Shown here: positions 5,600 through 37,825 of the stretch, in pieces
Numbering within the stretch: position 1 is the first letter of the stretch
Layout: each line of letters begins with the position of its first letter
Origin: Myxococcota bacterium
Lineage (GTDB): Bacteria > Myxococcota_C > UBA6777
Assembly (NCBI GenBank): GCA_023150835.1
Contig: JAKLKB010000067.1
Coordinates: 1 to 44,044, forward strand
Direction: 5' to 3'
Length of the DNA: 44,044 nucleotides
Program-made: the position numbers and the translations under genes
The notes under the pieces: generated by a model
Told to the model about the DNA's origin: nothing
The model's database searches: none
The model's input: the letters and a program-made list of their open reading frames with translations, nothing else

Positions 5600-5609
5600 A
5601 GAGGGCTTA

Positions 5610-5730
5610 GACAAGATCAGCCCACCGCGTGATCGCAAAATGGTGGGGCAGCCCCCTGCGGCTGCCCAACCACAGGGCGTTTACAACGGATCACATCGAC
5701 CCTTCGTGTACACTTCTCACGGATATCGTG
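5610..5730. mobile_element. MITE-A copy (121 bp) with REP hairpin, TTA on both sides
   Basis: TTA-GACAAGATCAG...GGGGCAGCCCCCTGCGGCTGCCC...CGGATATCGTG-TTA. Confidence 0.8.
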
Positions 5731-5756
5731 TTATCAGATCGAAAGGATACCTGTTC

Positions 5757-7028: not shown

Positions 7029-7076
7029 CGAACACGACGCCCTTCACCTGCCCGAACGATCGACAAGGACGAGACG

Positions 7077-10000
7077 ATGCCGCAACCACAAAAAAGCCGC
7101 ACCATCGCACAAGATCGCTTTGCTCCCTTACGCGGCCAGCTCCTCGCCGCAGTACAAGCCTTTTCCCAAGGCACCCACGCCATCGACAAGATGCTCGCCG
7201 CCATCGTGGACGATATGGAGCGCGCAACCAACGAACCCGTCGAGATCTTCCCTGTGGCCCACCACTCTCCCGCAGCCGCCATCCAGATCTTGCGCCGCCT
7301 CCAAGACGGCCCTACCCCCAAGGTCATCTTTGTGGAGTTGTGCGAAGATCTCCAACCCGTCCTACCCGGCCTCGCGGATTGTCAACTGCCGATCGCTCTC
7401 CAATCCTTTGCCACCGAAACAGCGGGCTTTCCGCCTGATTGGTCTCCGTTGACCGTTGTGGCCCCACTGACCGAGTTTTCCGCCGAATTTCAGGCCATCG
7501 CTTATGCGCTCAGCCACCCCGAACAGACCCAACTCGTCTTTGTCGATCGCTCGGTCGATCACATCTTTCAATGGCTCCCTCAACAAGAAGGCGCACTTGC
7601 CGAAGCCCTCGGCCACTCAGAAGATGAAGAAAGCATCTCCGAAGAAGCCGATGAAAACCTTCATGGAACCGCCTACGGCGTACAGATGGGACGAATGGAG
7701 CCGACATTCGAAGGCTTCCAAGAAGTCCTGCTCTCAAACGCCCGTGTACGCCACTTCTCCGAATGGTGGGACCAATACGTCGAGTCCTCGATCGTCGGCG
7801 CGGATTATCAAACTTACCGCGAAGTCATGTGTCTCGTGGGAAGCCTGATCCGCCGCCTCGGTCAATCCAAAGAACGGCTCGAAAATGACCGAAAACGCGA
7901 GCGTTATATGTGGACGCGGATCAAAGAACACCTCGCACAACACAAACTCCAGCCCGAAGAAACGCTGTTTATCTGCGGAGCCGCACACACCGCCTCAGAC
8001 GTCGACTCTTTTGGAACCCAAACTCCCCACCGCGATCCGATCCCGCCCCGCACCCAAACCAAATGGCTATACGGGATCATCCCTTCGAGCTTTCGCTCCA
8101 TCGAACAACAATTCGGTATGCCCGACGGGGCGATCTCGATCGCCGAAAGTGCGTGGAAACGAAGCCAAGAAGCCCTTGGACTGCGCTCTCTCGCGATCAA
8201 AGATATCAAAGACACCTCCCAAGCCAAACCAGCCCCCAAGAAAACCCCCAAAAAAACCACCCACCCGATCGATCCAACCAACGATGACGACGCCTCTTCC
8301 TCACCCATCGCGTCCATTTCAAGCGTTCCCGATGTCTTGGGCTTTTTGCAACGTCCGCCTCAGCTACTCGAACAAGACGAAGAACAACTCTTACGTTGGT
8401 GCGTTGAGATCGTCTCGATGGCCCGAGAAAACGGATACCTCGCTTCCACAGCCGATGCGATCGCCATCTACCAAACGGCGATCTTGCTTGGACGGATGCG
8501 AAACCGCCATCATCCCTCGCCTTACGACTTTCAAGACGCGGCGATCACCTGCCTCGAAAAAGATCGCACGCCCAAAAAGCGCAACGTCCAACGCTTATGC
8601 GAGATCTTGCTTGGCGGCGATCGCAGCGGTCATGTCGGTTATTCTTCTCTGCCTCCCCTCGCACAAGACGTCTACGACCGACTCTCCGCCTTGCCCGTCA
8701 CCCTCAAAGGAAAAACCATCCAGCGCGCTTTGATGGACTTTCGCCAAAATCCCGAATACTCCGCCTGTTCCGATCTGCTGTGGCGGCTTCATTACCTGCT
8801 CGGAAAAAACAATTCCCTTGTTCGCCCGATCATGGGTGAGCGCAACCTCGGGCAACGCGCTCTCCAAGAGTCATGGGATATCTCCATCGGAAAATACCAA
8901 GCCCCTCTGATCCAACTCGCTTACGAAGGCGTCTCCATCGAACAAGTCCTCGAACGTCGTTTGTTGCAGTATGCCTTTTCCTCCAAAGCCCGCACCGTCC
9001 AAGCCCTCGAAGCCACCGAGGACAGTCTGCTTTATCTGGAGGCTCGCCGACTCACCCAACGCCTCGGCGAACACGCCAACGATCTGCTCGTCCAAGAACT
9101 CGCAGCCGACGCCGCCCAAGATATCTTCGAGCGCGTCCGTCGCCTTGTGCATTACTACCGATCTACCCCAGAAGGTCTCCCGCCTTGGCTCCAACACTTC
9201 GTTGCAACGGGCTATTCGCACTTTTCCACCATGCTTCCCGAAGCCTTCAGCGATCGTGGCACTTCTCCCCAACAGATCAGCGGTATGTTGGCCTTTATCT
9301 TTACGCTCGAAAGCCTCGCTCTTTCGATGGGTTGCGAACGCAGCCAATTGATGATCGCGATCAAACAATCCGCATCGCTCACCCAAGATCCCGAAAAACT
9401 CGGGATCTTGTGGGCTGCAGAGTGGCTCCTTAGCGTTCGTGATATCGAGGAGATCCGCAGCTTCTTTGATCACCTGCTGGAAAATCCATTGACCCTTGCG
9501 GCTTTTCCCCGCTATCTCGATGGGTTTTTGCTTGCGCTCACCTTTACTCCGCTCGTCAGCCGATTGATCGTCGAACTGCTCTCCAAAGCCTTTGAACGCC
9601 TCCCTGATCAAGTGTTGATGCCGTGGCTACCGTCGCTTTTAATGGGCTTGCGCTCGCACAGCAACACCCTTCTCCCTTCCATCCTCCAAGAAGTCGCTCA
9701 GATCTATCCCAAAACCTCCAAAGAACTCGATGCGTGGATCGCCCCTTGGTATCGAGAACGCCGCAAACGCAAGACCACCATCCCCACCCCCCTCGTCCAA
9801 GAGATCCGCCCTGCTCTTCCCACGCTTTCTAACGAAGAACGCAGCATCTTTCAGATCATGGCCGATCATCCCCAAACCACCGACGCCCTCGCTCACCTGT
9901 TCGGAGTCGCCACAACATGGCGTTCTCCTGAAACAACCGAAACACCCGCCTCATCGACCGCTACTGCGGCTTTCCATGACCAACGCGAAGCCGACATCCA

Positions 10001-10244
10001 CGCAATTTTGCGCCATCATCCCCAAACCACCGACGCCCTCTCTTCATGGCTTGGGCTCTCCGCTTCGTGGCCCACAGAACCCACACATACGCCATCCGCT
10101 CTTGTCAGCGCAAAGCCCCATGCCAACGCCATCACCGAATATCTAGAACCCGAAGCCGCCGCTGCTGCCGCCCTCCTTCACCACCACCCCCAAACCCTCA
10201 CCGCCCTCGTCAAACATCTCATACCCAATCCGCAGAGTGTATGA
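7077..10244 (+). CDS. DUF5682 / YehM-like large protein
   Basis: 1055 aa with AHHSPAAA, IFVELCED, RERYM and LFICGAAH. Directly follows the MoxR ATPase. Confidence 0.85.
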   Translation: MPQPQKSRTIAQDRFAPLRGQLLAAVQAFSQGTHAIDKMLAAIVDDMERATNEPVEIFPVAHHSPAAAIQILRRLQDGPTPKVIFVELCEDLQPVLPGLADCQLPIALQSFATETAGFPPDWSPLTVVAPLTEFSAEFQAIAYALSHPEQTQLVFVDRSVDHIFQWLPQQEGALAEALGHSEDEESISEEADENLHGTAYGVQMGRMEPTFEGFQEVLLSNARVRHFSEWWDQYVESSIVGADYQTYREVMCLVGSLIRRLGQSKERLENDRKRERYMWTRIKEHLAQHKLQPEETLFICGAAHTASDVDSFGTQTPHRDPIPPRTQTKWLYGIIPSSFRSIEQQFGMPDGAISIAESAWKRSQEALGLRSLAIKDIKDTSQAKPAPKKTPKKTTHPIDPTNDDDASSSPIASISSVPDVLGFLQRPPQLLEQDEEQLLRWCVEIVSMARENGYLASTADAIAIYQTAILLGRMRNRHHPSPYDFQDAAITCLEKDRTPKKRNVQRLCEILLGGDRSGHVGYSSLPPLAQDVYDRLSALPVTLKGKTIQRALMDFRQNPEYSACSDLLWRLHYLLGKNNSLVRPIMGERNLGQRALQESWDISIGKYQAPLIQLAYEGVSIEQVLERRLLQYAFSSKARTVQALEATEDSLLYLEARRLTQRLGEHANDLLVQELAADAAQDIFERVRRLVHYYRSTPEGLPPWLQHFVATGYSHFSTMLPEAFSDRGTSPQQISGMLAFIFTLESLALSMGCERSQLMIAIKQSASLTQDPEKLGILWAAEWLLSVRDIEEIRSFFDHLLENPLTLAAFPRYLDGFLLALTFTPLVSRLIVELLSKAFERLPDQVLMPWLPSLLMGLRSHSNTLLPSILQEVAQIYPKTSKELDAWIAPWYRERRKRKTTIPTPLVQEIRPALPTLSNEERSIFQIMADHPQTTDALAHLFGVATTWRSPETTETPASSTATAAFHDQREADIHAILRHHPQTTDALSSWLGLSASWPTEPTHTPSALVSAKPHANAITEYLEPEAAAAAALLHHHPQTLTALVKHLIPNPQSV

Positions 10245-12995: not shown

Positions 12996-14876
12996 ATGTT
13001 TCGATTGCAACGTATGGCATGGTGTGGGTTTTTTGGGCTGTGGATGGGAGCGATGCTGTGGGCTTGTACACAAGACGTTCCCTGCAAAGCGGACTCTGAG
13101 TGCGCACAAAATCAATACTGCGACACCAGCCGCTCGAAATGCCGCCCCAACTGTAGCGCCGATCCCGACTGTCTCGCTGGCGAAACTTGCAACAAAGAGC
13201 GCAAACGCTGCCAAGGCAGCACGACCGAAAACGTCACACCCGACGGCGGAAATCCCGATGGCATCGGCCCTGATGGCGGAAACCCCGATGGCATCGGCCC
13301 TGATAGTGAAACCCCCGAAGGAACCGAAACGACCACCGAAAATAACCCTACCGAAACGCCCAACCCCGAACAAACCACAGGCGATTCTTCGATCCCGGGA
13401 AAATCGCCCAATTGTCCGGTCGAAACACGCGAATGTTATTCAGGCGCAGCAGGAACCCAAGGCAAGGGCGCTTGCAAAGCAGGAAAACAACGCTGCATCG
13501 ACGGAAATTGGGGTCCATGCGTGGGCGAAGTCGTCCCCAAAACCGAACAATGCAACGGGATCGACGACGATTGCGACGGCCAAGTAGACGGAAACTGCAC
13601 GACGTGGGCGACTTCCTTGGGTGGAAAAGGCGGCGATGAAGGCGCAAATATCGCGGTTAGCCCGTCCGGACAACACATCTATGTCACGGGCTCCTTCGCA
13701 GAAAACGCAACCCTCGGAGCCAAAAACCTCGTATCCAAGGGCGATTCGGATGCTTACCTTGCGCGTCTGGATAGCAAAGGCCAAGTGATGTGGGCCACCG
13801 CGTTAGGCGGAAGCGGAGAAGATCGCGGAAAGGCTGTAGCCACCGACGAAACGGGGAATCTCTACGCAACGGGACTTTTTGAAGGAAGCATCAATGTGGG
13901 GGCCGTCACGCTCAATTCCAAGGGCGGCAAAAATATCTACGTCGTAAAAATGGACGACACAGGCCGCGTACTTTGGGCGGCCACCGCAGGCAGCGCGACG
14001 GGTAGCGTCGAACCGCACGCCATCTTTGGCGACAAAGCAGGAAACGTCTACATCGCAGGTTCTTTCGGAGAGACCGCCAGTTTCGGCAGTGTGACGCTCA
14101 CCGCCAAAGGATATCTGGATGTATTTGTCGCAAAGCTCGATCCTTCGGGTCAATTTGTGTGGGCGACTTCTGCGGGTGGAACGGATAGCGAAGAAGCCTT
14201 GGGCGTCGCCGCAGACGAAACGGGCAACGTGTACATCACAGGCTACTTCCAAGGCAACGCATCCTTCGGCTCATCTGCGCTGTCTTCGGTCGGTACAACC
14301 AACGCATTCGTGTCCAAGCTCAACAACGCAGGGCAGTTCCAATGGACCACCACCAGCTCGCAAAGCTGGTACGCTGCAGGTCGCGGCGTCCAACTCGACA
14401 AAAGTGGAAACGTCTACGCTACGGGCTACTTTGAACAACAAGCCGCCTTTGGACTCAACGCCATCCGCTCCGATTATGGAACGGATACCTTCGTCGCCAA
14501 GATCAGCCCCACAGGCACCTTCATGTGGTCCAATTCGACCAGCGGCTACGCAAATAACCCGGGAAAGGGCCTTGGCATCGACAGCACAGGAAACTTGTAT
14601 ATCACGGGTTCTTTCGGCGGGCCGTTGACCTTGGGCAGCACCAAGCTCAATTCCCAAACACAAGATATCTACATCGCCAAGATCGGCACCGATGGAAAGT
14701 TTATCTCCGGCAAAGCCTTGTCTGGACGCGAAGTCAAGTCCAGCGACCACATCGCCACAGACACCAACGGCTCGGTTTACATCATCGGCACCTATCGCGG
14801 CAGCATGAGCGCGAACAGCACCACCCTCACCTCCAAAGGCTACACCGACACCTTCGTCGCAAAGATCACCTTCTAA
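12996..14876 (+). CDS. Lipoprotein with Cys-rich N-terminus, CNGIDDDCDG metal-binding motif and SBBP-type beta-propeller repeats
   Basis: Signal peptide ending LWAC; Cys-rich repeats; PDGGNPDGIG x2 linker; repeated GNxYxTGxF...DxFVAKLD..G...W units. ATG at 12996 follows AAAGGAA. Confidence 0.88.
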   Translation: MFRLQRMAWCGFFGLWMGAMLWACTQDVPCKADSECAQNQYCDTSRSKCRPNCSADPDCLAGETCNKERKRCQGSTTENVTPDGGNPDGIGPDGGNPDGIGPDSETPEGTETTTENNPTETPNPEQTTGDSSIPGKSPNCPVETRECYSGAAGTQGKGACKAGKQRCIDGNWGPCVGEVVPKTEQCNGIDDDCDGQVDGNCTTWATSLGGKGGDEGANIAVSPSGQHIYVTGSFAENATLGAKNLVSKGDSDAYLARLDSKGQVMWATALGGSGEDRGKAVATDETGNLYATGLFEGSINVGAVTLNSKGGKNIYVVKMDDTGRVLWAATAGSATGSVEPHAIFGDKAGNVYIAGSFGETASFGSVTLTAKGYLDVFVAKLDPSGQFVWATSAGGTDSEEALGVAADETGNVYITGYFQGNASFGSSALSSVGTTNAFVSKLNNAGQFQWTTTSSQSWYAAGRGVQLDKSGNVYATGYFEQQAAFGLNAIRSDYGTDTFVAKISPTGTFMWSNSTSGYANNPGKGLGIDSTGNLYITGSFGGPLTLGSTKLNSQTQDIYIAKIGTDGKFISGKALSGREVKSSDHIATDTNGSVYIIGTYRGSMSANSTTLTSKGYTDTFVAKITF

Positions 14877-14891
14877 ATTTCCTAGAACTTA

Positions 14892-15002
14892 TACGAGATC
14901 CGCCCGTTGTGTGATCGTAAAGATGTAGGGGTAGCCCCCCGTGGCTGCCCGATCATAGGGCATCTACATACTCTCGTTTGTGTGCATCACTCGGATATCG
15001 TA
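14892..15002. mobile_element. MITE-A copy (111 bp) inserted in the left TIR of a MITE-B
   Basis: TAGAAC-TTA-[TACGAGATCCG...GTAGGGGTAGCCCCCCGTGGCTGCCC...CGGATATCGTA]-TGA-CGCATTTGGA. Confidence 0.85.
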
Positions 15003-15005
15003 TGA

Positions 15006-15150
15006 CGCATTTGGATGGTTTTTGTGGGGCGCGGCCCCACGCCCCGCAAGGGACGATCGCCCCTTGACCCCGTATCGGCGAAGAGATCGTCGTTTTCCAA
15101 ACAGACGGCTCTCTCGCTTGAATTGCCGCAAACTCGGGGGTTTTTGCCAA
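15006..15150 (+). mobile_element. MITE-B family element, long variant; right end degenerate
   Basis: GTGGGGCGCGGCCCCACGCCCCGCAAGGGACGATCGCCCCTTGACCCCGTAT...TTCCAAAC...CTCTCGCTTGAA, homologous to 23580-23705. Confidence 0.75.
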
Positions 15151-15200
15151 CCATGCAAATTCTCTCTGACCGTACGGGATCCTGCTCTCTCGCATCACTC

Positions 15201-15278
15201 CCACCACCCGCCTGTTTCACGTCGCCCCACCGCCCGCCTGTTTCACATCGCCCCACCACCCGCCTGTTTTACATCGCC
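15201..15278. repeat. 26-bp tandem repeat x3 (intergenic VNTR)
   Basis: CCACC(A/G)CCCGCCTGTTT(C/T)AC(G/A)TCGCC at 15201, 15227 and 15253. Confidence 0.9.
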
Positions 15279-15306
15279 CTTTTGACTTCGAGTGGACGGA
15301 CTTTTC

Positions 15307-16845
15307 TTATTTTTTGTGATATTCGACCGTCAATGTGAACTCGCTCGAATCTACGGCACTTTGAACACCGACAAAGAACGATCCCGGCCCTGCGACGGTG
15401 CAGGCTTCAAAGGAGCCTTCTTCGTAGGGGCTGCAAGCGAAATTGCCTGAGGTGATCTGTTCTTTGGGCTGATCTTTCCAAACATACAAATCAACATCGC
15501 CCGAACCTTCGATCTTGGCTTTCAGGTCCCCGCCAGAGACGGCGTAGGGGCCAAAGATCTTCCATTCGTTTTGGCGCAGCGTACCACGTTGGACATCCGA
15601 AACCATTGCGCCCTTGCCATCGGGGTTTGTGGTGGTTTTGGCGGGGATCTGCATGGTCGTGCAATGCACTGAACCGCCCCAAGGGATGATATCTTGTCCA
15701 CCTGCAACGCCCACGACGTTGTATCCGGGCATTTGATCACGATAGACCTTCAAAGCAGCGTCGTCTGTGGACAAACCATACAGCGGAACTAAAACGGTTT
15801 TGTTGACGATGGTGGAGTTGGTATAAGCGTAGTAAACGCGCCCGTCATCGGAGTCTTTGAAAAACATCGGGATACGCACGACTTTGAAGGGTTTGCCTTC
15901 GGCGTTGGTGTTGCTGGCGTAATACTTCGCGGCATCTTCTAACGAAGCGATCTCTTGGCTCGAAGCGCCCCATCCTGCGTTGGATTGGGCGACGATGATC
16001 ACTTCTTCGTTGAGGATCTTGGAGAACATATCGAGGTGAGTCGTGCCTTCTTGATAGAGCGGCTTGGGCGTGTAGGTCTTTTTGCAACCGAGATAACGCG
16101 CATACAACGTGGACAACTGCTCTGGCGAAAGGTTATTGAAATCAAAGATACCTGTGCTGGTCCAACAGGTGCCTTTTCCATCGCTCATAAAGTTTCCGCC
16201 TTCGGTGTAAAGGTGGGCTTTGTAGACGTCATCGCCCCACAAGGGGCCTAATTTGGCGGAGATAGCATCATCGAAGGTGCGGGTGGGGTAGTACTTGGTG
16301 TCCACGATCGCACGTTTTCCATCGACATAAACATGCCAAGGGCCGTAGTCACGGGACCAAAAGGCGTCGATGCTATTTTGGATCCATCGGACTTGGTTGG
16401 TGGCGATGCCTTTGGGGGTAAGGGTGTACTGGGTGATCTCTTCTTTGTCGGTGTCGTTGGCGTACACCAGATAAGGGATCGCACCTGCTTGGAGGATGCC
16501 TTTGATCATGTTGCCAAAGAATTCGTCCATCGTGTCGTCGTTGGCTGCGCGAACCAAGACGCCTTCCATCGGTTCGAACTCTGCGGGGACACGGACATTT
16601 CCTGTGGGAGCCGACGAATACATCGACAACAACACGGGCTCGCTTTGGATGATCTCTTTGGCTTTGCGGCGTTCCGCAGCGGTCATGGCCTTGGGCAACA
16701 GTCGCTTTCCTCGCAACGAATCTGGCGCAGCTGTGGGCGTTGTGACACGAAGGGTATCCCCTTCTCCAAGAGGCCACGTATCGCTGTCAAGGCGGCAGCC
16801 GACCGCGAACAAAGGCAAGAGGCACAAGAAAAGAATACGCTTCAT
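15307..16845 (-). CDS. Agmatine deiminase / peptidylarginine deiminase family lipoprotein with C-terminal PPC-like domain
   Basis: Motifs RVPAEFEP, WSRDYGP, EGGNFMSDGKG, THLDM, YTNS, GGSVHCTTMQIP. Lipobox FAVGC. C-terminal GSGDVDLYV..ACSPY..EAC. Confidence 0.9.
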   Translation of the reverse strand: MKRILFLCLLPLFAVGCRLDSDTWPLGEGDTLRVTTPTAAPDSLRGKRLLPKAMTAAERRKAKEIIQSEPVLLSMYSSAPTGNVRVPAEFEPMEGVLVRAANDDTMDEFFGNMIKGILQAGAIPYLVYANDTDKEEITQYTLTPKGIATNQVRWIQNSIDAFWSRDYGPWHVYVDGKRAIVDTKYYPTRTFDDAISAKLGPLWGDDVYKAHLYTEGGNFMSDGKGTCWTSTGIFDFNNLSPEQLSTLYARYLGCKKTYTPKPLYQEGTTHLDMFSKILNEEVIIVAQSNAGWGASSQEIASLEDAAKYYASNTNAEGKPFKVVRIPMFFKDSDDGRVYYAYTNSTIVNKTVLVPLYGLSTDDAALKVYRDQMPGYNVVGVAGGQDIIPWGGSVHCTTMQIPAKTTTNPDGKGAMVSDVQRGTLRQNEWKIFGPYAVSGGDLKAKIEGSGDVDLYVWKDQPKEQITSGNFACSPYEEGSFEACTVAGPGSFFVGVQSAVDSSEFTLTVEYHKK

Positions 16846-16962
16846 GAAAAACTCCTTCACCAAGAGAACAAACCCCTTTGGGTACGTTTGGGCATATGCG
16901 TTTTTTTTCCCCACGTCAACGGACTTCTGCTCTAGAGGCGGATAATTGGGAGATATCTTTTT

Positions 16963-19900
16963 TCAAAAGTCATCTTCTGAAGAAAGAGCCGCATGATCTT
17001 GCTCGTATTCACCGATCTGATAGATCAGTTCGCGGTACAGGCGGATATCGATCTGCGTCAAAGATTGGATGGTACGAAGCGCAAGCAACTCTTCACTCCA
17101 GATGCGATGTTCTCGGATCACCCGTTCAAATCGCTTTTGTAAAGAAGCGTGTACATCTCCCGCAACATCGGCTTTTGCAAGCGATATCAACGGTTTTCGC
17201 AAGACGGAGCGCTGCGAAAGATACGCCTCCCACGCACGCTCCACATGCTTTGCGATGTCGCTGTTTTGGATGTGTTTGGCTTGCAAGAAGGCGTCGAAGG
17301 CTTGACGCTCGGCATCTTTTCCGCGTCGAAACAGCACACGAAGCTCGTGCATCCACCGAGACCATCGTGCGCGGATGCGTTGACGCGGCGAGGACTCCTG
17401 CGAAGACACGGCTCGATGCAGATGGCTATACAAGAACCGATACTGCTCGTGTAAGGTGCGCGCTTCGTGATAATCCACCAGATACGCCGACGTGAGCGCA
17501 CGCAAGACCTCTCGTGTACGCCCGCGCAAGGGCGGCGCGATCTGTTCAAGAAAAGCGGCGAGTTCTTCTTCATCCAACCAACCCATCTCTGCGAGCAGAT
17601 CGCGAAAGGCAAACAATCGGCTCTCTTGTGTTTGGCGCATCGTATAAAAAAAGCTGCGTTCCTCTTCAAAGGCCGCAATAAAATCCAGATCCGCCTCCAG
17701 CCCACGCCCTTCTAATCCCGAAGAAGATCGACTGGGTAGAAAAAGCCCGAGATATTCGGCATCCAACATCGAACGCAAGCGCATCGACTCGATGTATAGG
17801 GGCTTTCGCATACGGTTGAGTTTTCTTGCAGCAACATGAAAGCCCGCCCATCCGACGCGATGCTCTGCCTTGACCGTTGGAGGATGAAGGATATCGCGCA
17901 CCAAGCGAAACACACCTCGCGTCCCCCAAAACAGCCCCTTGAGCAACCACCACACCACCGCAAACGGCGACAAAAAGATCCGACCACTCGCGCCATAGCG
18001 TTGATACATTTGATACAAATTGAAGGTCCGCTGTTCTTTGCTCAGGCGATGGAAGGGATAAAAACCGAAGATCTCACGCACAAGGGCTTTTCGCTCGGCT
18101 TTCATCAAACGCATCACCTCTTCGCCAAAGATATCGGCGATGGCGCGGTCTCGATCGGGCTGTACCGAAAGAAAATGCAGCGCCGTAAACTCGTTATGCA
18201 AAAAGGGGCGTTGGCTTTTCTTTTGTTTTTCGCGCTCGGGTTCTTGCTCTGTCTCGAAGATCGTCCCTTCCAAAAGCGCGAAGCGACGGGCCTTCCAAGT
18301 CTCATAATCTTGGCGATGCGCCTCGCTGCACCACGCAAGTTCACGCAGCGGAACACAGCGTTGATTGAAGTCGACGATCAAGCCTGCGATGCGTTGGGCC
18401 ATGCTTTCTGTGATCGCTGCAAACCACAGATACGGACCAAGATACAACAGCCAACGATCCTTCGAAAGATCCAGCCGATCCACACGCAACTGCTCAAACA
18501 ACCCCAATCGCAATCGGTGGCGTCGAAGGTTTTGCATCAACAAGTTTCCAAGAAGCTGGTTGGTGGTCTTGATATCGCTGCGGTGAAGCGGGGTTCCTTC
18601 GAGGTAATCCTCATACAACAACAGCATCTGCTCGCGTTCCATCCATCGGGTGCTTTGGTGCGTCTCGATTGTACCGCTGCCGCTCGCCAACAACGGCGAA
18701 GCCCCACGTTGGGCATACGCCATCTGCTCGATCTCGTCCATCTGCCCCCAAAGCTCCTTGAGTTGGGCAGAAACAGTCGGCATGGCCCGATCCCGCAAGA
18801 CATCTTCGGGGTGCAAAACACGCCGAGAAAGCGTCAACAAGTCCTTGTCACGGCGTTGGCGCTTCATCTGCTTCAAACGACCGATGAATTGGGCTTCATA
18901 TACCTTGGTATGCAGATCCGTCTCACCCCCTGCCAGCATCCGAAACCAATAGCCCATCGCCAACGGGATCAAACTCAACAAGCCCAACACCACGATCGAG
19001 GCCCCCAAAAAGCGACCCAAAAACAATGCCAAGCCATGCAACGCTTGGATCTGAAAGCCTTGGAGCAACAACGACACCAGTAAAAACAGAAAACCAAACA
19101 TCAACAAGCGCGTGGTCGGTCGCATCGTTGCGTTGATCAGCGCCAGCCCTACACGATCGAGGATCTGCGGGCCTGTCACCATCCCAAACCAATCGCCTAT
19201 CCAATGAATCACCCCTTGTATCCGCTCAAGACGGCGACCGATCCGCTGAATCACCCAAGCCACCGCAGCCGCAGGATCCAGATCTTCAATCCCTGTTGCG
19301 ATCTTCCGCAATATCGGCAGATAACGCACCCCGGGCGCGCAAACATACCGAAGAATTCGGTAGGCGTTGCGCACAAACGATGCCCCCAAGTTCTCTTCGA
19401 CCCGCACAGCATCCATACTGGTCATCTCGCGGATCAACCGTTCGAACGTGATCTCTCCGCCGCTGTGTGGAGCGCCATAACGCCTTGCGCGGTTTGTACC
19501 GCCAAAACGCTCGATACACCGACGCGATGACTCAAGCCGCCCACGCAAAAAAGGTAGCCGCTCCCCCACCGCAACTTTCTCTAGCCACATCCGCATGCGT
19601 TTGCGAGCGCGATCACGCAGGATCTGGATATCCTGCCCCACTTCATGCAAAGCCCCTTGCACAGGCTGTTCTTCGTCGCGTGGAAACAACAGGATGTTTC
19701 GATTAAAGATCGGCTCAAACTTCCGAAGTAGCCGATCTATCGCACGCACCAAAAACGTCGCCAAACGAAAGATCCGAACCAACGGGCGCAAAAAACGGAT
19801 GTACCTCGCGATGCGTTGCGCCCGCAACAACCGCGCCGTCCGCATCGCAGAGAGATGAGCCACTTGCGCGTGCGGCTGGATCAACCAAAACGCAAAACCA

Positions 19901-21468
19901 AACGGCAGGGACGGCAAAAAGTCGATCACAAAATGACGACCAAAGTACAAACCTCGCCGCTTTGCAAAAGACAGCTTCGTAAAAAACTCTGTCAGAAACC
20001 ACCCACAGATCGCCGTATCCACCCACATCAGCGCAAGATGCCAACCCGGCGAGAGCTTGATCTGCCACTCCAACACCAACAAAAACAAGACCACAAAGAT
20101 CAACATCAACGTGATATTTTCTGCACGCGCCACAAATGGCCGTCCCAACGTCGTTTCCAAACGAAACTGCACGTGCCGCTCTTGCGCTTCGGCTCGAATC
20201 CTCCGCCACAGCCGCTCTGTTTGTTGCACCATGCGATCATAGCGCGTAGCCGGTCGGAATCGCTTTTCTTGCAAGGGCCGCAAGATCTCTAATAACCACG
20301 TCGCCCGTAGCTCCGAGATCTCCAAAACCTGCGAAGCCTCTGCCAAAGGGATATCATCGACTTCGGCAAGGCGCTCATCAAGGTGATCCAACACCAGTTG
20401 AAGCTGGTCAGGGAACCACACACGAAACACCGCTGTTTCGACCTCTGCGATCAATTGCCGCATCCTCTGGCGCAAACTGCCGATCCGCGCATCCACCGCC
20501 AGCACCCACGCACGAACATTTCCGGTCTCACCTTCTCGGCAGGACTGGCGCACCAAAGACAAACGCAACGACTCGCCTTCGAGCAAAGACCGCCAAACCC
20601 GCGATAGATCGCGCAACAAAGCTGTCCGCAACGCGATCTGCTCCGCATCGGCCTGTTCCGCTTCCAAGCCCAAGACCAACGCAGTTCCCCCGCCCTGTCC
20701 TTCGGCTGCTTGTTCGGACGCTTTTGTGGTGGCCTCTGGGTCGAAAGCTTTGATCTTCCCCGTATAGGCTTGTCTTTGGCGTTGGGCTTGTTCGCTGCTT
20801 TGTAAGTCTTTTTCGGATGCATCCAAAAACGTTTTTAGTTCAAAGGACAATAACTCTCCCCGTGTCAAAGCCGCCTCTTGACGCAAGGGCGCGACTTGTT
20901 GACGCAGACGCTCACGCACTTGGCCGGGGAGTTCTTGAGAGGATTGCCTCAAAGCATCCGACGCTTGAACGCCCGCATCCAAGCGCCCTTCCACCTCTTC
21001 TGTCGAAAGCGCAACCGTCAGCCGCTCGATCTCGTATTCCACCCACGTCAGATCCGCCACCCCTTCGGCCAACCACGCACTCTCCAAACCACCCGCCCCC
21101 TCAAGCCACCACTGCAACGCGCTCAACTCGCTTTGCACTTCGGCCATCTCATGCAACGCATCCACCCGCTCTTTGACGACATCCCCGATCAGCCCGTCAA
21201 AACGCTTCCGCACTTCGTCAAACACCAACGCCGCATAAGCCCGACGATCCTCCCGCCGTTCCGCCATTCCAAACATCGCATATCCGCGCAAGGCTTCTTG
21301 CAGACGACTTTGCAATACGTCCCATTCACCGCCCTCACCTGTCACACGCGGCTGCACCAAAAACAACGCCCGCGACAAACGCCAGTACACCGCAACGTCC
21401 TCGCCTTGATCCACCCCTCCCAAGGCTGCTTCGATCTCTTCTCGCCATGTCTGATCATCCCAAGCCAT
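16963..21468 (-). CDS. Giant (~1500 aa) membrane protein with voltage-sensor (Ion_trans S1-S4) domain
   Basis: S1 ENITLMLIFVVLFLLVLE, S2 VDTAICGWFLTEFFTKL, S3 FVIDFLPSLPF, S4 RTARLLRAQRIARYIRFLRPLVRIFR. Likely start ATG 21468 after AAGGTGG; ORF is open to 21603. Confidence 0.85.
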   Translation of the reverse strand: MAWDDQTWREEIEAALGGVDQGEDVAVYWRLSRALFLVQPRVTGEGGEWDVLQSRLQEALRGYAMFGMAERREDRRAYAALVFDEVRKRFDGLIGDVVKERVDALHEMAEVQSELSALQWWLEGAGGLESAWLAEGVADLTWVEYEIERLTVALSTEEVEGRLDAGVQASDALRQSSQELPGQVRERLRQQVAPLRQEAALTRGELLSFELKTFLDASEKDLQSSEQAQRQRQAYTGKIKAFDPEATTKASEQAAEGQGGGTALVLGLEAEQADAEQIALRTALLRDLSRVWRSLLEGESLRLSLVRQSCREGETGNVRAWVLAVDARIGSLRQRMRQLIAEVETAVFRVWFPDQLQLVLDHLDERLAEVDDIPLAEASQVLEISELRATWLLEILRPLQEKRFRPATRYDRMVQQTERLWRRIRAEAQERHVQFRLETTLGRPFVARAENITLMLIFVVLFLLVLEWQIKLSPGWHLALMWVDTAICGWFLTEFFTKLSFAKRRGLYFGRHFVIDFLPSLPFGFAFWLIQPHAQVAHLSAMRTARLLRAQRIARYIRFLRPLVRIFRLATFLVRAIDRLLRKFEPIFNRNILLFPRDEEQPVQGALHEVGQDIQILRDRARKRMRMWLEKVAVGERLPFLRGRLESSRRCIERFGGTNRARRYGAPHSGGEITFERLIREMTSMDAVRVEENLGASFVRNAYRILRYVCAPGVRYLPILRKIATGIEDLDPAAAVAWVIQRIGRRLERIQGVIHWIGDWFGMVTGPQILDRVGLALINATMRPTTRLLMFGFLFLLVSLLLQGFQIQALHGLALFLGRFLGASIVVLGLLSLIPLAMGYWFRMLAGGETDLHTKVYEAQFIGRLKQMKRQRRDKDLLTLSRRVLHPEDVLRDRAMPTVSAQLKELWGQMDEIEQMAYAQRGASPLLASGSGTIETHQSTRWMEREQMLLLYEDYLEGTPLHRSDIKTTNQLLGNLLMQNLRRHRLRLGLFEQLRVDRLDLSKDRWLLYLGPYLWFAAITESMAQRIAGLIVDFNQRCVPLRELAWCSEAHRQDYETWKARRFALLEGTIFETEQEPEREKQKKSQRPFLHNEFTALHFLSVQPDRDRAIADIFGEEVMRLMKAERKALVREIFGFYPFHRLSKEQRTFNLYQMYQRYGASGRIFLSPFAVVWWLLKGLFWGTRGVFRLVRDILHPPTVKAEHRVGWAGFHVAARKLNRMRKPLYIESMRLRSMLDAEYLGLFLPSRSSSGLEGRGLEADLDFIAAFEEERSFFYTMRQTQESRLFAFRDLLAEMGWLDEEELAAFLEQIAPPLRGRTREVLRALTSAYLVDYHEARTLHEQYRFLYSHLHRAVSSQESSPRQRIRARWSRWMHELRVLFRRGKDAERQAFDAFLQAKHIQNSDIAKHVERAWEAYLSQRSVLRKPLISLAKADVAGDVHASLQKRFERVIREHRIWSEELLALRTIQSLTQIDIRLYRELIYQIGEYEQDHAALSSEDDF

Positions 21469-21608
21469 CCGCACCACCTTTGCAATACAAGCCTTTTTGA
21501 GTACCTTCCCACACGCCACGTCATCCAAAACGACGCAACCACTTTGTTCGCTTCTCTTCTTTTGGGCGTATATTGCGCGCCCTACGCAAGCCAAAAAGGC
21601 CAAACACC

Positions 21609-22898
21609 ATGATCTCGCCGCGCAACTCCACCAACGCTTTGCTCACTTTGATCGCCCTTCTTTTGACTGGTGTGATCCTCAAACTCACCCAAGCTGTCTT
21701 GGTTCCTTTCGTTCTGGCGTGTTTCCTCACCGCAGCCCTTTATCCGCTGATCCGTTGGATGAATCGCTACATCCCTTCTTGGCTTTCACTGCTCTTGTTG
21801 CTCGGTCTCTTCGGCTTTCTGATCCTCTCCGACGCGCTGATCTTCCTCTTCAATCTCGAAGAGATTACCCAAAAAGCGCCCCAATACAACCAACGCATCC
21901 AACAACTCTTTCACGATCTAACAAAGTTCGGCGAACAATACGGCATCCAAGCACCTTGGAAAAAAATTAGCCCCGAACAAGCCGTCCGTTGGCTTCTTTC
22001 GATCCTTGGCGCTTGGATATCTTCGCTTTTTCTGATCCTTGGACAAGCACTCTTGGTTGTGTTCTTTATGATCTTTCTTCTCGTCGAAAGCCAGCAGTTC
22101 GAACGCAAGATCCGCGTCGCCTTCACCACCGATGAAAGCCAAGCCTTGCTCGCTTCGGTCTACTCCATCAACGAAAAGATCCAACGCTACATGGTCACCA
22201 AGACTTTTATCAGCCTTCTGACGGGCTTGATGACCAGTCTCGCAACCTTCCTGCTCGGCGTCGACTTCCCTGTCTTGTGGGGCATTATCGCCTTCTTGCT
22301 CAACTATATCCCCAACATCGGCTCGATCGTCGCGGTGATCCCGCCCGTCTTGATCGCCCTCCTTCAAAAAGAGCAAGGATTCGCCCTCGCTCTCGCGACC
22401 CTCGCGATCCTCACCACGATCCAAATGGTCGTCGGAAATCTTCTCGATCCCCATCTGACAGGCGATTCGCTCGATATCTCACCGCTCATCGTCTTTCTCT
22501 CGCTGGTCTTTTGGGGCTGGTTATGGGGCATCATCGGCATGATCCTCGCCGTCCCCCTCACCGTCGTGATCAAAGTTTTTTGCGAACACACACCCACACT
22601 CCGCCCCTTCGCCATCTTGATCGGTGGAGAACCTCGAACCACACTACCCCCCTCTTCGACACCTTCCGAAAAGCCCTCCTCTTCGACACCTTCCGAAAAG
22701 CCCTCCTCTTCGACACCTTCCGAAAAGCCCTCCTCTTCGACACCTTCCGAAAAGCCCCCCTCTTCGACACCTTCCGAAAATCCGAACGTTCTCCTCCCAA
22801 CAAAAAGCAGCTCTCCCGCCCGCCCCCCCGCACAAGTGACCTCGCAAATCCACCCCTCACAGGCTTCAAAGCTTCCAAAGAAAAAAAAGAAACGCTAA
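21609..22898 (+). CDS. AI-2E family transporter (TqsA/PerM-like) with repetitive C-terminal tail
   Basis: Multiple TM helices; LVPFVLA, FLLNYIPNIGS, LSLVFWGWLWGIIGMILAVPLT. Confidence 0.93.
   Translation: MISPRNSTNALLTLIALLLTGVILKLTQAVLVPFVLACFLTAALYPLIRWMNRYIPSWLSLLLLLGLFGFLILSDALIFLFNLEEITQKAPQYNQRIQQLFHDLTKFGEQYGIQAPWKKISPEQAVRWLLSILGAWISSLFLILGQALLVVFFMIFLLVESQQFERKIRVAFTTDESQALLASVYSINEKIQRYMVTKTFISLLTGLMTSLATFLLGVDFPVLWGIIAFLLNYIPNIGSIVAVIPPVLIALLQKEQGFALALATLAILTTIQMVVGNLLDPHLTGDSLDISPLIVFLSLVFWGWLWGIIGMILAVPLTVVIKVFCEHTPTLRPFAILIGGEPRTTLPPSSTPSEKPSSSTPSEKPSSSTPSEKPSSSTPSEKPPSSTPSENPNVLLPTKSSSPARPPAQVTSQIHPSQASKLPKKKKKR
22647..22781 (+). repeat. In-frame 27-bp tandem repeat x5 (P[S/P]SSTPSEK)
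   Basis: CCC(T/C)CCTCTTCGACACCTTCCGAAAA(G/T), five copies. Confidence 0.95.
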
Positions 22899-22913
22899 CA
22901 CGAATAGGACTTA

Positions 22914-23024
22914 TACGATATCCGGAAGAAGCGTACACAAAGCATCATTCGGATACGCCCGATTATCGGGCAGCCACAGGGGGCTGCCCCTACATTTACG
23001 ATCACACTATGGGCGGATTTCGTA
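22914..23024. mobile_element. MITE-A copy (111 bp)
   Basis: TTA-TACGATATCCG...GGGCAGCCACAGGGGGCTGCCCCTAC...CGGATTTCGTA-TTA. Confidence 0.88.
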
Positions 23025-23027
23025 TTA

Positions 23028-23141
23028 TACGATCTCCGAGTGATGCACACAGCAAAGGAGAATACGTAGACGCCCGATTATTGGGCAGCCCCCTGTGGCT
23101 GCCCCTACATTTTTACGATCACACAACGGGCGGATCTCGTA
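23028..23141. mobile_element. MITE-A copy (114 bp)
   Basis: TTA-TACGATCTCCG...GGGCAGCCCCCTGTGGCTGCCCCTAC...CGGATCTCGTA-TTA. Confidence 0.88.
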
Positions 23142-23144
23142 TTA

Positions 23145-23559
23145 GAGGGTGTTTGCGAAAAAGTGAAAAGTGTTTACATTCCCTTGAGATGAAGCAGAAT
23201 GAGCGAATAAAACGGAGGGAATGATGAGCAAGCAGGAAGCGAAAGAACAAGTGGTGGCGGCTTATGATGGAGGAGAGAGAGATGACGTGCGGCTTGCTAA
23301 CCAATTCGGCGTGTCGGAGAGTTCCGTGCGTCTTTGGTTGCGCTTAGCCCACCGAGGGGTTCGATCGACGGACTCCAATCGAGGTTCTTCGGTGGAGATG
23401 GATCGTCGAGCGTACATTCGCTTGGCTCGGACGTTCGCGCCGGTTGAGCAAGGAATATGAATACCTTGAAAGCTCATCCAAAACTTGGATCTTGCTCGCC
23501 ATGACTCAACTTATGCTAAAGAGATCGTCAACATGATCCACTTTTTCGCAAACACCCTC
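23145..23559 (+). mobile_element. Internally deleted IS5-family (IS1031-like) element, 415 bp
   Basis: Perfect 21-bp TIRs GAGGGTGTTTGCGAAAAAGTG / CACTTTTTCGCAAACACCCTC, with TTA on both flanks. Confidence 0.92.
23221..23536 (+). pseudogene. Transposase remnant: N-terminal HTH joined out of frame to an IS5 C-terminus
   Basis: One frame reads LANQFGVSESSVRLWLR (HTH). A second frame from ~23378 reads [29 protein letters not shown]...[10 protein letters not shown]. Most of the DDE core is missing. Confidence 0.88.
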
Positions 23560-23725
23560 TTACGTAGTTCGAACATTTTTGTGGGGTTGGAACCCCACGC
23601 CCCGCTTCCTTAGCGCGGCTCCCTTGACCCCGTGTTTGGCGAAAAGATCACTGCTTTCCAAACCAACAACACTCTCGCTTGAACGGGTGCGAACACGGTT
23701 TTTTTGGTCAACTGCTTAAGTCCTA

Positions 23726-23923
23726 TACGAAATCCGCCCATCATGTGCGCCCAAATGTAGGGGCAGCCCCCTGTGGCTGCCCAACCACAGGGTGTCTACA
23801 GCGGATCGCACACAACACATCACACGCCCCGACCCTTATGGTTGGGAAGATGGCTGCCCAACCATAAGGGTGTCTACAGCGGATCGCACCTACCCCTCGT
23901 GTACACTTCTTTCGGATATCGTG
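23726..23923. mobile_element. MITE-A copy with internal duplication
   Basis: TACGAAATCCG...GTAGGGGCAGCCCCCTGTGGCTGCCC...CGGATATCGTG. The segment GGCTGCCCAACCA..GGGTGTCTACAGCGGATCGCAC occurs twice. Confidence 0.8.
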
Positions 23924-23975
23924 CGAGGCGTGGGGTGGAACCCCAAAAACTCCCTTGATGACGCAAGTCCCGCCT

Positions 23976-24359
23976 TCAATTCATGGTTGACGGATCGAAC
24001 AGCATAAACTCCCCGATATCGGCATCAAAAGAGCGGCCTTCGTCGTCGATCATCTCATACGTCCCTTGCATCGAGCCTGTGGGGGTGGAGAGAGGGCAAT
24101 AGCTCGTATAGCGGAAGGCCTCACCGGGCAACAATCGCGGTTGTTCGCCGACCACGCCCGGGCCTTTGACTTCTTGGACCTGCCCCCAACCATCTGTGAT
24201 GATCCAGTGGCGGTTGAGCAATTTGGCAGGTTTTTTGCCGACGTTGGAGATCGTGATGGTGTAAGCAAAAAGCCATTGGCTGCGATCTTGTTCGGATTGT
24301 TCGGGCAAAAACTTGACTTCGACTTGAACACGAATGCCTTGGGTTGTTGTATCGGACAT
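23976..24359 (-). CDS. apaG: ApaG protein
   Basis: FAYTITISN, LLNRHWIITD, GPGVVGEQP, CPLSTPTGSMQGTY. Confidence 0.97.
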   Translation of the reverse strand: MSDTTTQGIRVQVEVKFLPEQSEQDRSQWLFAYTITISNVGKKPAKLLNRHWIITDGWGQVQEVKGPGVVGEQPRLLPGEAFRYTSYCPLSTPTGSMQGTYEMIDDEGRSFDADIGEFMLFDPSTMN

Positions 24360-24549
24360 CTCCAGCCTTTCCGTTGGATGAGAAAAAAATCACGGGCAAT
24401 TACGGATCTCCAAGATCCATGCGCGTAAGCGTTTTGTTGCTTCTTTGTGTTCCAACGAAGCTTCGATCAGACATCTTTCGAATATCGTATCAGCCCCTTC
24501 AAAAGGATGCAAAACAACCGAAGATGTCGCGAAAGAAAAAAGGATCGAG

Positions 24550-24695
24550 ATTGCGCGGTGGGATAGGTTTTGTGGGGTGTCACCCCAGACCCCACAGGGG
24601 ACGTTCGCCCCTTGACCCCGTATTGGCGGGACGTTCCAACGTTTTTCAAACCAACGACTGCGCCGCTTGGTAAGTTGAGAACACGGCTTTTTTTA
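24550..24695 (+). mobile_element. Degenerate MITE-B family element, long variant
   Basis: GTGGGGTGTCACCCCAGACCCCACAGGGGACGTTCGCCCCTTGACCCCGTATTGGCG...CAAACCAAC...GAACACGGCTTTTTT. Confidence 0.7.
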
Positions 24696-24781
24696 GAGAA
24701 CGACCTGATTCTGGTAGGGCTTGCGGATTTGCTAATTAGATGGGGCGCGGCCCTTGCTTGTTGAGCGCGGCCCCCGCGCCC

Positions 24782-25681
24782 TCAAAAAGAGGTGTTGGAC
24801 TCGCTTGCAGCGCGGATCTGCAAGGTGGGGGCATACCAAAGGCGGCGCAAAGCCAGCGCCAACATCCCCAGCGAAACGACCATCCACACGCCCGACCACA
24901 ACGCCGCAGGGCCAAACAGCGCATCGGAAACAGCCGAAGCATCGGACTTTGCAGGCAGACCGTTAACGACTTGATGTGTTGAAAACAAAACGCGTAAACT
25001 GGTCAGAGAATTGAGCGCACAAGCCGCCGACAAAAAGCTAAAAAACCAGCGCGTCACGCGCATCGATCCCCGCCACGCCAAAGCCAAACAAGCCGCTGCC
25101 CACCCAAGCAACACCGCGAAAGTAAAGGGATCGCGCCCAAACAGCGCCGAGATCAATAACAATCCCCCAAAAGCCCCCAACCCGACGCGCCCCGTGTCTT
25201 CCTCCGTCGTGCCGAGGCTCATCACCAAAAACACCCCAACCAACGCCACATACAACAACCCCCCCGCCCATCCGCGTACCATCAAAAGACCCACACCACC
25301 GAAAGCAACGGCCACCACCAGCCCCAACAAACGGCTTGCTTTGGTCGGGCGTTGCAAAAACAACATCATCATGCCCAAAAAGGCCGTACCCACATACCCT
25401 GCGCTTGCCACCACCACTCTCGAAAAACGCGAATCCGCGATCGCTGTAAGCGCACGCCCCGAAGTATCCGTAAATATCTCCAACTGATCAAACCGCCCCC
25501 CCACCGCCAACGCAGCAAGACCATGACAAAGCTCGTGAACCCACGTCGAAAACAACTCAAACGGATACAACGCATAACGCACGATCGGCAGGTTGGCAAT
25601 CAGCAACCAGACCACAAGCGCGCCGATCAATGCTCGATTTTCATACAAACCGCTCTTTTTCTCTGTAAGATTCGTCGTCAT
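24782..25681 (-). CDS. M50 family (M50B-like) membrane metallopeptidase
   Basis: TWVHELCHG (HExxH), AGY, late SDA motif, many TM helices. ATG at 25681 follows GGAGG. Confidence 0.88.
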   Translation of the reverse strand: MTTNLTEKKSGLYENRALIGALVVWLLIANLPIVRYALYPFELFSTWVHELCHGLAALAVGGRFDQLEIFTDTSGRALTAIADSRFSRVVVASAGYVGTAFLGMMMLFLQRPTKASRLLGLVVAVAFGGVGLLMVRGWAGGLLYVALVGVFLVMSLGTTEEDTGRVGLGAFGGLLLISALFGRDPFTFAVLLGWAAACLALAWRGSMRVTRWFFSFLSAACALNSLTSLRVLFSTHQVVNGLPAKSDASAVSDALFGPAALWSGVWMVVSLGMLALALRRLWYAPTLQIRAASESNTSF

Positions 25682-33129: not shown

Positions 33130-33938
33130 CGATCGGCATCGGGGATGTAAGCATAAGAAAGCATCGCAGAGGCGGGATTATGCGAGCCACGCGTGAGGTA
33201 TGCAAAGATATCGAGCGGTCGGTTGCCGCATTTGTATTGGGCAGCGCGTAGATTTGCGGGAGGAATACTCTGATCTTTTGCGGAAGGCCCCTTACCATCG
33301 CCCTTTGTACCATGACAGGACCAACAAGCGTTCGCGAGGTAAAGCTGTTGGCCGCGTTTCTCCAAAACCGAGACAGGAAGAGACGGAGGGATCGCAGGAT
33401 CGGAAGGTGCAGAGTCCGGGACAGCGGGAGGTGCGGAAGGAACAGGCTTGATGGGCTTTTTGACGCCCAACGTGATCAGATAAGCCACCAATGCGCTGAT
33501 ATCGGGTTCTGTGATGCGTCCGCGATAGGTCGGCATGGTCGGCGGATAGTCTTGCACAAGGTATCGACCGGGATCGACGATCGCCGTCCGCAAAACCTCC
33601 TCCGTGACCAGAAGCTTTCGGCCATCTTGCAACGTCAGGGTCGAACCATACAGCCCTTTCATCGTCGGCCCCACCGAACGCTTCCCATCCACTGTGTGAC
33701 ATGCGTTGCACCCCTGTTGAAGAAAAATCTGACGGCCTTTCTCAGGATCGATCATCGCGATCCATCGGCGCTTTTGAAGCCGTGACGAAAACGCGCTTGT
33801 TTTTTTCAGCGAAACTGCGGGCCGATCAGGCCGTGCATACGAGGGCAACAGCAAAAAAAAGCCACCCCACACCGCCAAGCCAAAGCCCACCACCGCGCTC
33901 ACAAAAACCCGATCGGTCAGGGAAAAGAATGTCTGCAT
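33087..33938 (-). CDS. Membrane-anchored/exported dihaem cytochrome c
   Basis: N-terminal hydrophobic helix. CNACH...MP and CWSCH...M domains separated by a Pro-rich linker. Confidence 0.9.
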   Translation of the reverse strand: MQTFFSLTDRVFVSAVVGFGLAVWGGFFLLLPSYARPDRPAVSLKKTSAFSSRLQKRRWIAMIDPEKGRQIFLQQGCNACHTVDGKRSVGPTMKGLYGSTLTLQDGRKLLVTEEVLRTAIVDPGRYLVQDYPPTMPTYRGRITEPDISALVAYLITLGVKKPIKPVPSAPPAVPDSAPSDPAIPPSLPVSVLEKRGQQLYLANACWSCHGTKGDGKGPSAKDQSIPPANLRAAQYKCGNRPLDIFAYLTRGSHNPASAMLSYAYIPDADRWALAYYLVSIKNP

Positions 33939-35270: not shown

Positions 35271-35291
35271 CGGACACTCCGTAGGTATGCG

Positions 35292-37782: not shown

Positions 37783-37825
37783 GCTTTCACCTTTCTACAT
37801 GATCAAGCAAAAGTCCGAAAAGGAC

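Follow-up and report, generated by a model that had tools for sequence, protein, structure and literature searches.

The window analyzed here is the whole 44,044-nt contig JAKLKB010000067.1 (NCBI GenBank assembly GCA_023150835.1), which belongs to a Myxococcota bacterium placed by GTDB in Myxococcota_C, UBA6777. On its minus strand lies a giant gene, which an earlier note, made from the letters of the DNA alone, had described as encoding a stand-alone voltage-sensor protein without a recognizable ion pore, and had interpreted as a bacterial sensor of membrane potential coupled to some effector or scaffold. Counted from the first TTG, the reading frame covers 16963..21603 (open reading frame list and translation). 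Its nearest relatives, P0002 and P0003 (95% and 86% identity), are both 1,501 amino acids (aa) long and cover 100% of the query, and the start was therefore set at the ATG at 21468, which gives a coding sequence of 1,501 aa plus stop at 16963..21468. All features of the protein described below lie on the same strand.

A structure model of aa 421-1501 was built with AlphaFold2 (AF2) on a 90-sequence alignment, from which all conservation counts out of 90 are taken; these homologues are ~30% identical to the window protein. The model has a mean predicted local distance difference test score (pLDDT) of 88.3 and a predicted template modeling score (pTM) of 0.86. Together with the sequence, it divides the protein into a series of segments. 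The N-terminal region (aa 1-421, 20206..21468) is poorly conserved, with variable sequence and length in an alignment of 20 members, and has no family match in Pfam; by composition, aa 1-440 are acidic (net charge -21), with an abundance of Leu, Ala, Glu, and Arg. A basic amphipathic helix (aa 422-441, 20146..20205; AF2 helix, model residues 2-21) directly precedes the first membrane helix, and R422, R423, E430, R436, L437, E438, and G442 are conserved in and around it. It is followed by the voltage-sensor domain (VSD) with its helices S1-S4 (aa 443-583, 19720..20142), which is supported by Pfam Ion_trans, AF2, VIA, and Foldseek; by a cytoplasmic linker domain between S4 and the fifth transmembrane helix, TM5 (aa 584-765, 19174..19719), which is helical apart from one small two-stranded sheet; by a helical hairpin of TM5 and TM6 (aa 766-859, 18892..19173); and by a conserved all-alpha C-terminal domain (aa 860-1501, 16966..18891). 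Within the latter, the helix at aa 1163-1194 (17887..17982), which is amphipathic, rich in Trp, and lined by a stripe of basic side chains, stands out as a candidate membrane-surface helix. The protein thus has 442 aa before S1 and 918 aa after S4, close to the ~450 and ~900 aa of the earlier note, which had also located the S1-S4 module correctly, at ~19720-20125. The same architecture is fixed throughout the family: a variable N-terminus, a Kv-type VSD, a linker of ~200 aa, a tight hairpin, and an all-alpha C-terminal domain of ~640 aa.

The sequence of the sensor module carries the complete set of motifs known from voltage-gated channels. Kyte-Doolittle peaks define S1 (aa 443-466), S2 (478-498), S3 (511-532), and the beginning of S4 (from ~541), and the corresponding AF2 helices cover aa 443-469, 474-501, 505-530, and 544-583. 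S2 bears D484, F491, E494, and K498, and S3 bears D516, i.e., the D...F..E pattern and the S3 aspartate that had been read before; with E467 at the end of S1, the counter-charge set comprises E467, D484, F491, E494, and D516. Seven arginines occupy every third position of S4 (R543, R546, R549, R552, R555, R558, R561), and further ones follow at R565, R568, R575, R579, and R582. These residues are under conservation. In S1, E467 is Glu in 65 and Asp in 16 of the 90 sequences. In S2, D484 is invariant (90), F491 is Phe in 62 and Leu in 28, E494 is Glu in 56 and Asp in 34, and position 498 is Arg or Lys in 88. R511 (88), D516 (Asp in 76, Glu in 13), and P522 (90) are conserved in S3, as are R546 (73), R549 (76), R555 (81), R558 (74), R568 (90), and D578 (90) in S4. 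At least four basic residues stand in the three-residue register of S4 in 81 of the 90 sequences, and all seven in 32.

Profile and fold searches lead to the same assignment. The Pfam family Ion_trans matches aa 453-567 (E 8.6e-5), and it does so through positions 8-122 of its 241-position profile; the comparison with this family that the earlier note had proposed thus aligns the S1-S4 half only. Ion_trans was found in 25 of 33 homologues (in 16 of the 33 at 25 bits or more), the remainder being seven without any match and one with DUF5372 alone. Among the 20 alignment members, 19 match Ion_trans, and no other Pfam family occurs in more than one, even at E<=1. A profile of these 20 members retrieved 75 sequences of solved chains at E<=1. 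Sixty of them were listed, and 58 of these are channels with a VSD, aligned in S2-S4 or S1-S4 only. They include Kv3.1, Kv4.2, Kv2.1, HCN1/3/4, Kv1.2, hERG, KvAP, and a bacterial Nav, with Kv3.1 (7phh) as the best match (E 1.4e-5), while the other two, both of them designed helical proteins, align with the N-terminal region. At the level of structure, VIA superposes the first 166 model residues on the isolated VSD of KvAP (1ors_C) with Z 10.8, a root-mean-square deviation (rmsd) of 3.1 A, and 132 of 132 residues aligned; the same part scores Z 9.9 against Kv3.1 and Z 9.5 against the sensor of Ci-VSP (4g7v; rmsd 4.4, 129 of 136 aligned). Foldseek agrees (KvAP VSD 2kyh, probability 1.00, template modeling (TM) score 0.62 on the target). 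S1-S4 is a Kv-type voltage-sensor fold with conserved motifs, and through it the protein belongs to the voltage-sensor superfamily. The concern that the Arg-rich helix might lie outside a four-helix VSD is not borne out by the model, in which it forms the fourth helix of the bundle.

A sensor fold does not need to sense voltage. S1-S4 folds without voltage sensing are common, as in TRP and CNG channels, and the module could accordingly be a voltage-insensitive structural relic that merely anchors a functionally unrelated cytoplasmic protein in the membrane. The nine of the 90 homologues with no more than three basic residues in register on S4 would fit such a relic. However, the full charge-transfer set has been kept despite divergence to ~30% identity, which is hard to reconcile with an anchor, since a mere anchor needs no conserved charges. 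We therefore consider a relic improbable.

Where a voltage-gated channel would continue with its pore, the protein takes a different course. In all 25 homologues that match Ion_trans, the match stops no later than position 129 of the 241-position profile. As a control, the family was compared by hhalign with a complete, conventional channel with six transmembrane helices (6TM) and RCK from the same genome, and S1-S3 alone aligned (89% probability, 67 columns). This control channel is encoded by a 533-aa open reading frame at L001 1285-2886 (G000:C77) and matches Ion_trans at profile positions 2-231 with 59.2 bits. Between S4 and TM5 of the family protein lies the linker domain, which has a length of 192-209 aa in all 90 homologues and is modeled with mostly high confidence; D759, near its border to TM5, never varies, and conservation extends to G762, D771, and R772. 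The next hydropathy peaks after S4 lie at aa 785-806 (2.09) and 820-843 (2.34), with a weaker one at 1162-1183, so that the first begins at ~aa 785, 202 aa after S4, as the earlier note had estimated (~200 aa). In the AF2 model, the two stronger peaks belong to a TM5 of 40 residues (aa 766-805, model 346-385) and a TM6 of 52 residues (aa 808-859, model 388-439), both of which extend into the cytoplasm and are joined by a periplasmic turn of just two residues (aa 806-807), which leaves no P-loop. The TM5-TM6 loop has the length of the window protein in 60 of the 90 homologues, at most seven residues in 82, and at most 12 in 88, and the turn residues vary. Conserved residues of the hairpin (P784, R787, G792, G822, P824, L828, G829, C832, G839, W841) are small or structural, and its fold retrieves only generic helical hairpins in VIA. 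A motif scan of the protein found none of [TS][VIL]G[YFL]G, GYG, and TLESW, in agreement with the missing TVGYG/TLESW-type filter noted before, and the Pfam, NCBIfam, solved-chain, and fold searches assigned the rest of the protein to no transporter or channel family. A conventional S5-P-S6 pore is therefore absent in sequence and model, and the downstream helices, for which the earlier note had named a conventional pore or known transporter as the refuting outcome, are two long helices with a two-residue turn in the model. The protein probably conducts no ions.

The hairpin nevertheless allows for a second interpretation, namely a non-canonical voltage-gated channel, in which several subunits would contribute their TM5-TM6 hairpins to the lining of a central pore devoid of P-loops, the VSD would gate it, and the cytoplasmic parts would form a regulatory ring. 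The topology, with six transmembrane helices and both termini inside, is that of the voltage-gated channel superfamily, and the small residues on one face of TM6 (G822, G829, C832, G839), together with G792 on TM5, form a typical surface for tight packing. In some channels, the pore-lining helices extend into the cytoplasm, and the very long hairpin helices (40 and 52 residues) reach it as well. Moreover, one homologue was named 'ion transporter' by NCBI, which is an automatic name. However, there is no pore helix or filter, and the two-residue turn is not conserved. The membrane parts of TM5 and TM6 lack conserved polar or charged residues, R787 and W841 being located at the boundaries; a domain of 192-209 aa occupies the place of the short S4-S5 linker of gated channels; and profile and fold searches align S1-S4 alone to channels. 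A complex prediction with four copies of the hairpin (aa 755-870) was uninformative on oligomerization (score 0.00, mark 0.42, partner fold uncertain). Taken together, a channel of this kind appears possible, but rather unlikely.

Alternatively, the sensor itself could be the conducting element: protons or ions would pass through its gating pore, as they do in Hv1, under the control of the other parts of the protein. Hv1 is characterized by an RxWRxxR motif on S4 and, in the middle of S1, by an acidic residue for selectivity. Neither was found in the window protein: the only match to R.WR..R lies at aa 419, before S1, in line with the earlier note, which had not seen the motif either; and mid-S1 is entirely hydrophobic, its only conserved acids, E450 and E467, being located at its two ends. 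S4 carries an unbroken run of arginines, and in Nav channels a gating-pore current arises once a smaller residue replaces one S4 arginine, according to a 2024 review (PMC13095418). VSDs are able to conduct, as exemplified by Hv1 and by omega currents (PMC13095418), and no other pore is apparent in the protein; even so, conduction through this VSD is highly improbable.

Folded alone by AF2, aa 925-1501 of the C-terminal domain (577 aa) yield an all-alpha structure with a pLDDT of 91.5 and a pTM of 0.89. The fold comparison of the flanking part that had been suggested on the basis of the sequence thus starts from a confident model, and it returned no known fold. Foldseek found nothing at E<=1e-3 (top row a TRPC chain, E 0.046, TM score 0.12), and among 48,161 representative chains VIA found two at Z>=5 and none at Z>=8, the best reaching Z 5.2 over 64 residues, which is far below what is usual for helical proteins according to the VIA notes. 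The domain has no match in Pfam, NCBIfam, or PADLOC, and no usable one in the ESM Atlas, where the homologue P0009 retrieved only fragment clusters with Ion_trans (scores 0.79-0.86). At the same time, it is well conserved, with F1094, P1168, R1215, R1219, R1232, D1236, D1260, and R1465 being invariant. The amphipathic Trp-rich helix is a single AF2 helix (model residues 740-774) with a family-mean hydropathy peak of 1.57; R1163, P1168 (90 of 90), R/K1177, R1184, and R1191 are conserved, one of its sides is hydrophobic, and it contains Trp residues.

Two groups of candidate relatives of this domain were rejected. The top rows of Foldseek for the whole model and the C-terminal domain (TRPC/TRPM channels, terpene synthases, membrane pyrophosphatases, ABC exporters) have E-values of 0.04-0.7 and TM scores of ~0.1, and they were judged to be noise from long helices; none of them is among the 50 VIA rows listed for the C-terminal domain (down to Z 4.0). 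VIA in turn placed the pore domains of CatSper, KirBac3.1, NaK, Kir6.2, and Slo2.2 on aa 1011-1144 or 1011-1220 at Z 4.0-4.7, i.e., at noise level. A hidden pore at aa 1011-1220 was likewise dismissed, as the helix at aa 1116-1133 is charged and hydropathy at aa 1014-1032 is weak (1.21).

The C-terminal domain hardly ever occurs apart from the sensor, since only four proteins of 317-1,010 aa were found to carry it, two of which are encoded on contigs of less than 3.5 kb. The other two, P0085 (628 aa, 15-kb contig) and P0194 (395 aa, 33-kb contig), consist of the C-terminal domain only and may be true split or truncated forms instead of assembly fragments.

The family is large. An exhaustive phmmer search with aa 421-1501 against 1.84 billion representative proteins yielded 501 proteins with E-values up to 1e-3, of which 373 reach 1e-10 and 279 reach 1e-30; most of the best 150 matches have lengths of 1,200-1,500 aa and align colinearly with the query. 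The gene occurs in five of six genomes of the window's own GTDB phylum (G000 included) and, among the Planctomycetota (the phylum of G006), in 57 of the 301 genomes sampled, mostly with one match per genome; a related-locus scan with the single protein gave two loci. A quick maximum-likelihood tree with 36 rows groups the four members from the window's own phylum into a single clade (SH-aLRT 100), which lies among the others under midpoint rooting. Five rows on long branches probably represent wrong open reading frames, and no conclusion on gene transfer was drawn from the tree. The stretch is present in sludge, wastewater, and aquatic metagenomes of nine studies. Contigs identical to parts of the gene also occur in two RNA-Seq runs (X17, X18) from one sample of one study, which is not proof of transcription, and gaps in their coverage carry no meaning.

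No conserved neighborhood accompanies the gene. In the survey of homologous loci that the earlier note had suggested, no neighbor family was common to more than four of 22 loci within ~8 kb on each side. In the window, a divergent AI-2E transporter gene begins at 21573, separated from the giant gene by an intergenic region of 104 nt, and 48 nt past the end of the giant gene follows an agmatine-deiminase-like PAD_porph gene (15307-16914, minus strand). At the loci of the closest relatives (L004, L007), the start of the PAD_porph gene overlaps the stop of the giant gene by 4 nt. These two neighbors are common to L004 and L007 only, and are not found at the loci of other genera or of the other phylum. 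A defense system is without support, because PADLOC gave no match. The sensor and its C-terminal domain thus constitute a dedicated module, without partner genes and with the C-terminal domain tied to the sensor. The promoter scan gave no sigma-70-like sites, and terminator-like sites occur at the level of shuffled sequence (8 observed vs 7.1).

Elsewhere in the window, a REP-like palindromic intergenic element, GGGCAGCC-N7-GCTGCCCCTACATTT, is found at 22968-22997 (+), 23083-23112 (+), and 23753-23782 (-). The genome of the window contains this element 70 times (38 forward, 32 reverse), with none for the control with the reversed pattern. In sludge runs, 22952-23235 shows a very high contig depth and many joints, and Rfam has no family match within 14800-24800. 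At 3983-10244 (+), genes for a VWA_CoxE protein, an AAA_5 protein (MoxR-like ATPase), and a 1,055-aa DUF5682 protein follow each other and possibly form a chaperone-type MoxR-VWA module; a 97-nt 'tRNA-???' with a two-letter anticodon, called by ARAGORN inside the VWA_CoxE open reading frame (4148-4244, minus strand), is probably false. At the other end of the window (33087-44023, minus strand) lies a respiratory cluster with ActD of alternative complex III, several cytochromes c, SCO1/SenC, COX2, COX1, and COX3.

How does the protein relate to known voltage-sensor proteins? With the sensors of Kv, Nav, HCN, and KvAP it shares the four-helix fold, the arginines at every third position of S4, the aromatic and acidic residues of S2, the acid of S3, and the outer acids on S1 and S2. 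In these channels, a short linker leads from S4 to S5-P-S6, whereas here a domain of 192-209 aa follows S4; and unlike the channels, the protein has an N-terminus of ~440 aa and a C-terminus of ~640 aa without known family. Proteins in which a VSD acts without a pore are very few, namely voltage-sensing phosphatase (VSP), Hv1, TMEM266, and SLC9C1, and all are eukaryotic according to passages of the 2024 review (PMC13095418), with which the same statement in the earlier note agrees. Passages of this review and of PMC13661669 name no prokaryotic non-channel VSD protein, and a full-text literature search that covered part of the journals found no paper on a family of this kind.

Among these proteins, SLC9C1, the sperm Na+/H+ exchanger, is the closest precedent, because it has no S4-S5 linker, an S4 of ~60 A, and cytoplasmic helices that clamp the latter (PMC10620092). 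Like SLC9C1, the window protein combines a VSD with a putative non-channel output, lacks an S4-S5 linker, and has a predicted long, rigid S4 (40 residues) that would reach into helical domains of the cytoplasm. However, SLC9C1 is eukaryotic and carries an exchanger domain, whereas the protein described here is bacterial and carries a different, putative output domain; Na+/H+ exchanger and cyclic-nucleotide-binding domains had no Pfam match, neither in the 20 members at E<=1 nor in this protein at E<=0.1. The likeness to Ci-VSP lies in the order of VSD and cytoplasmic effector on one polypeptide and in the superposable VSDs. In comparison with Ci-VSP, two additional membrane helices are present, and the effector is ~900 aa long, all-alpha, and of no known fold. 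A phosphatase signature C.{5}R, which the earlier note had not seen either, occurs nowhere in the protein, and Pfam and NCBIfam found no phosphatase family. Hv1 and TMEM266 likewise have S1-S4 without a pore domain, but both are small and carry a coiled coil at the C-terminus (PMC13095418). The protein therefore has neither the pore that distinguishes 6TM channels nor the defining features of VSP, Hv1, and SLC9C1. What is new relative to the known coupling of VSDs without a pore is the output domain and the taxonomic realm.

The resulting hypothesis, which we regard as somewhat more probable than its negation, is that the protein is a pore-less sensor of membrane potential that drives a new cytoplasmic module through its long, rigid S4. 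A change in membrane potential would move the Arg-rich S4 through the charge-transfer center (F491, E494, D516; outer acids E467 and D484). In the AF2 model, S4 is one continuous helix of 40 residues (aa 544-583), which at 1.5 A per residue would measure ~60 A and would extend with about half of its length (~20 residues) past the bilayer. The half beyond the bilayer carries R565, the invariant R568, R575, the invariant D578, and R579, and owing to its continuity beyond the bilayer, S4 would act as a rigid rod. The pTM of 0.86 over 1,081 residues suggests one compact body rather than beads on a string, which is why a rigid-rod displacement is proposed. The displacement would be transmitted directly into a cytoplasmic body that the linker domain and the C-terminal domain form together with those parts of the hairpin helices that extend into the cytoplasm. 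The output would then be the state of this body, i.e., an enzymatic, binding, or scaffolding activity, instead of a current through a conventional pore. Hence, the earlier proposal of a bacterial membrane-potential sensor is supported as far as the VSD and the lack of a conventional pore are concerned, whereas the coupling of S4 to the cytoplasmic domain is what we infer from the model.

Several points weigh against this interpretation. The movement of the VSD with voltage is presumed from its motifs, and with 22.3 bits (hmmscan) the window protein remains below the 25-bit gathering cut-off of Ion_trans, the same place scoring 25.4 bits in a six-frame search of the genome. The strong conservation of G792, G822, P824, G829, C832, G839, and W841 in the hairpin would also fit the packing of an oligomeric pore, and tight two-helix hairpin channels without a P-loop do exist, e.g., CorA and MCU. 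In the C-terminal domain, a motif scan found no Walker A, HExxH, CX5R, or GGDEF, so that nothing independent speaks for an enzymatic output, and the location of the Trp-rich helix (aa 1163-1194) at the membrane surface is a guess.

Whether the family is the first of its kind among prokaryotes, i.e., a non-channel, voltage-regulated family of Planctomycetota and Myxococcota-like bacteria, in which a Kv-type sensor with a rod-like S4 switches a module of new fold, is in our view evenly balanced. Should the protein turn out to be a channel instead, it would represent a voltage-gated channel whose pore is of a new design and dispenses with the P-loop, which would be of comparable interest. If the hypothesis of a pore-less sensor is true, the coupling of VSDs to outputs other than pores would not be a eukaryotic invention, but would exist in a widespread family of bacterial proteins whose fully equipped sensor is joined to a new output domain of ~900 aa. 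Membrane potential would directly control a cytoplasmic activity in these bacteria, making the protein a bacterial counterpart of voltage-sensing phosphatase and SLC9C1. Bacterial electrophysiology would thereby gain a defined protein, and structural work and engineering a new sensor-effector pair.

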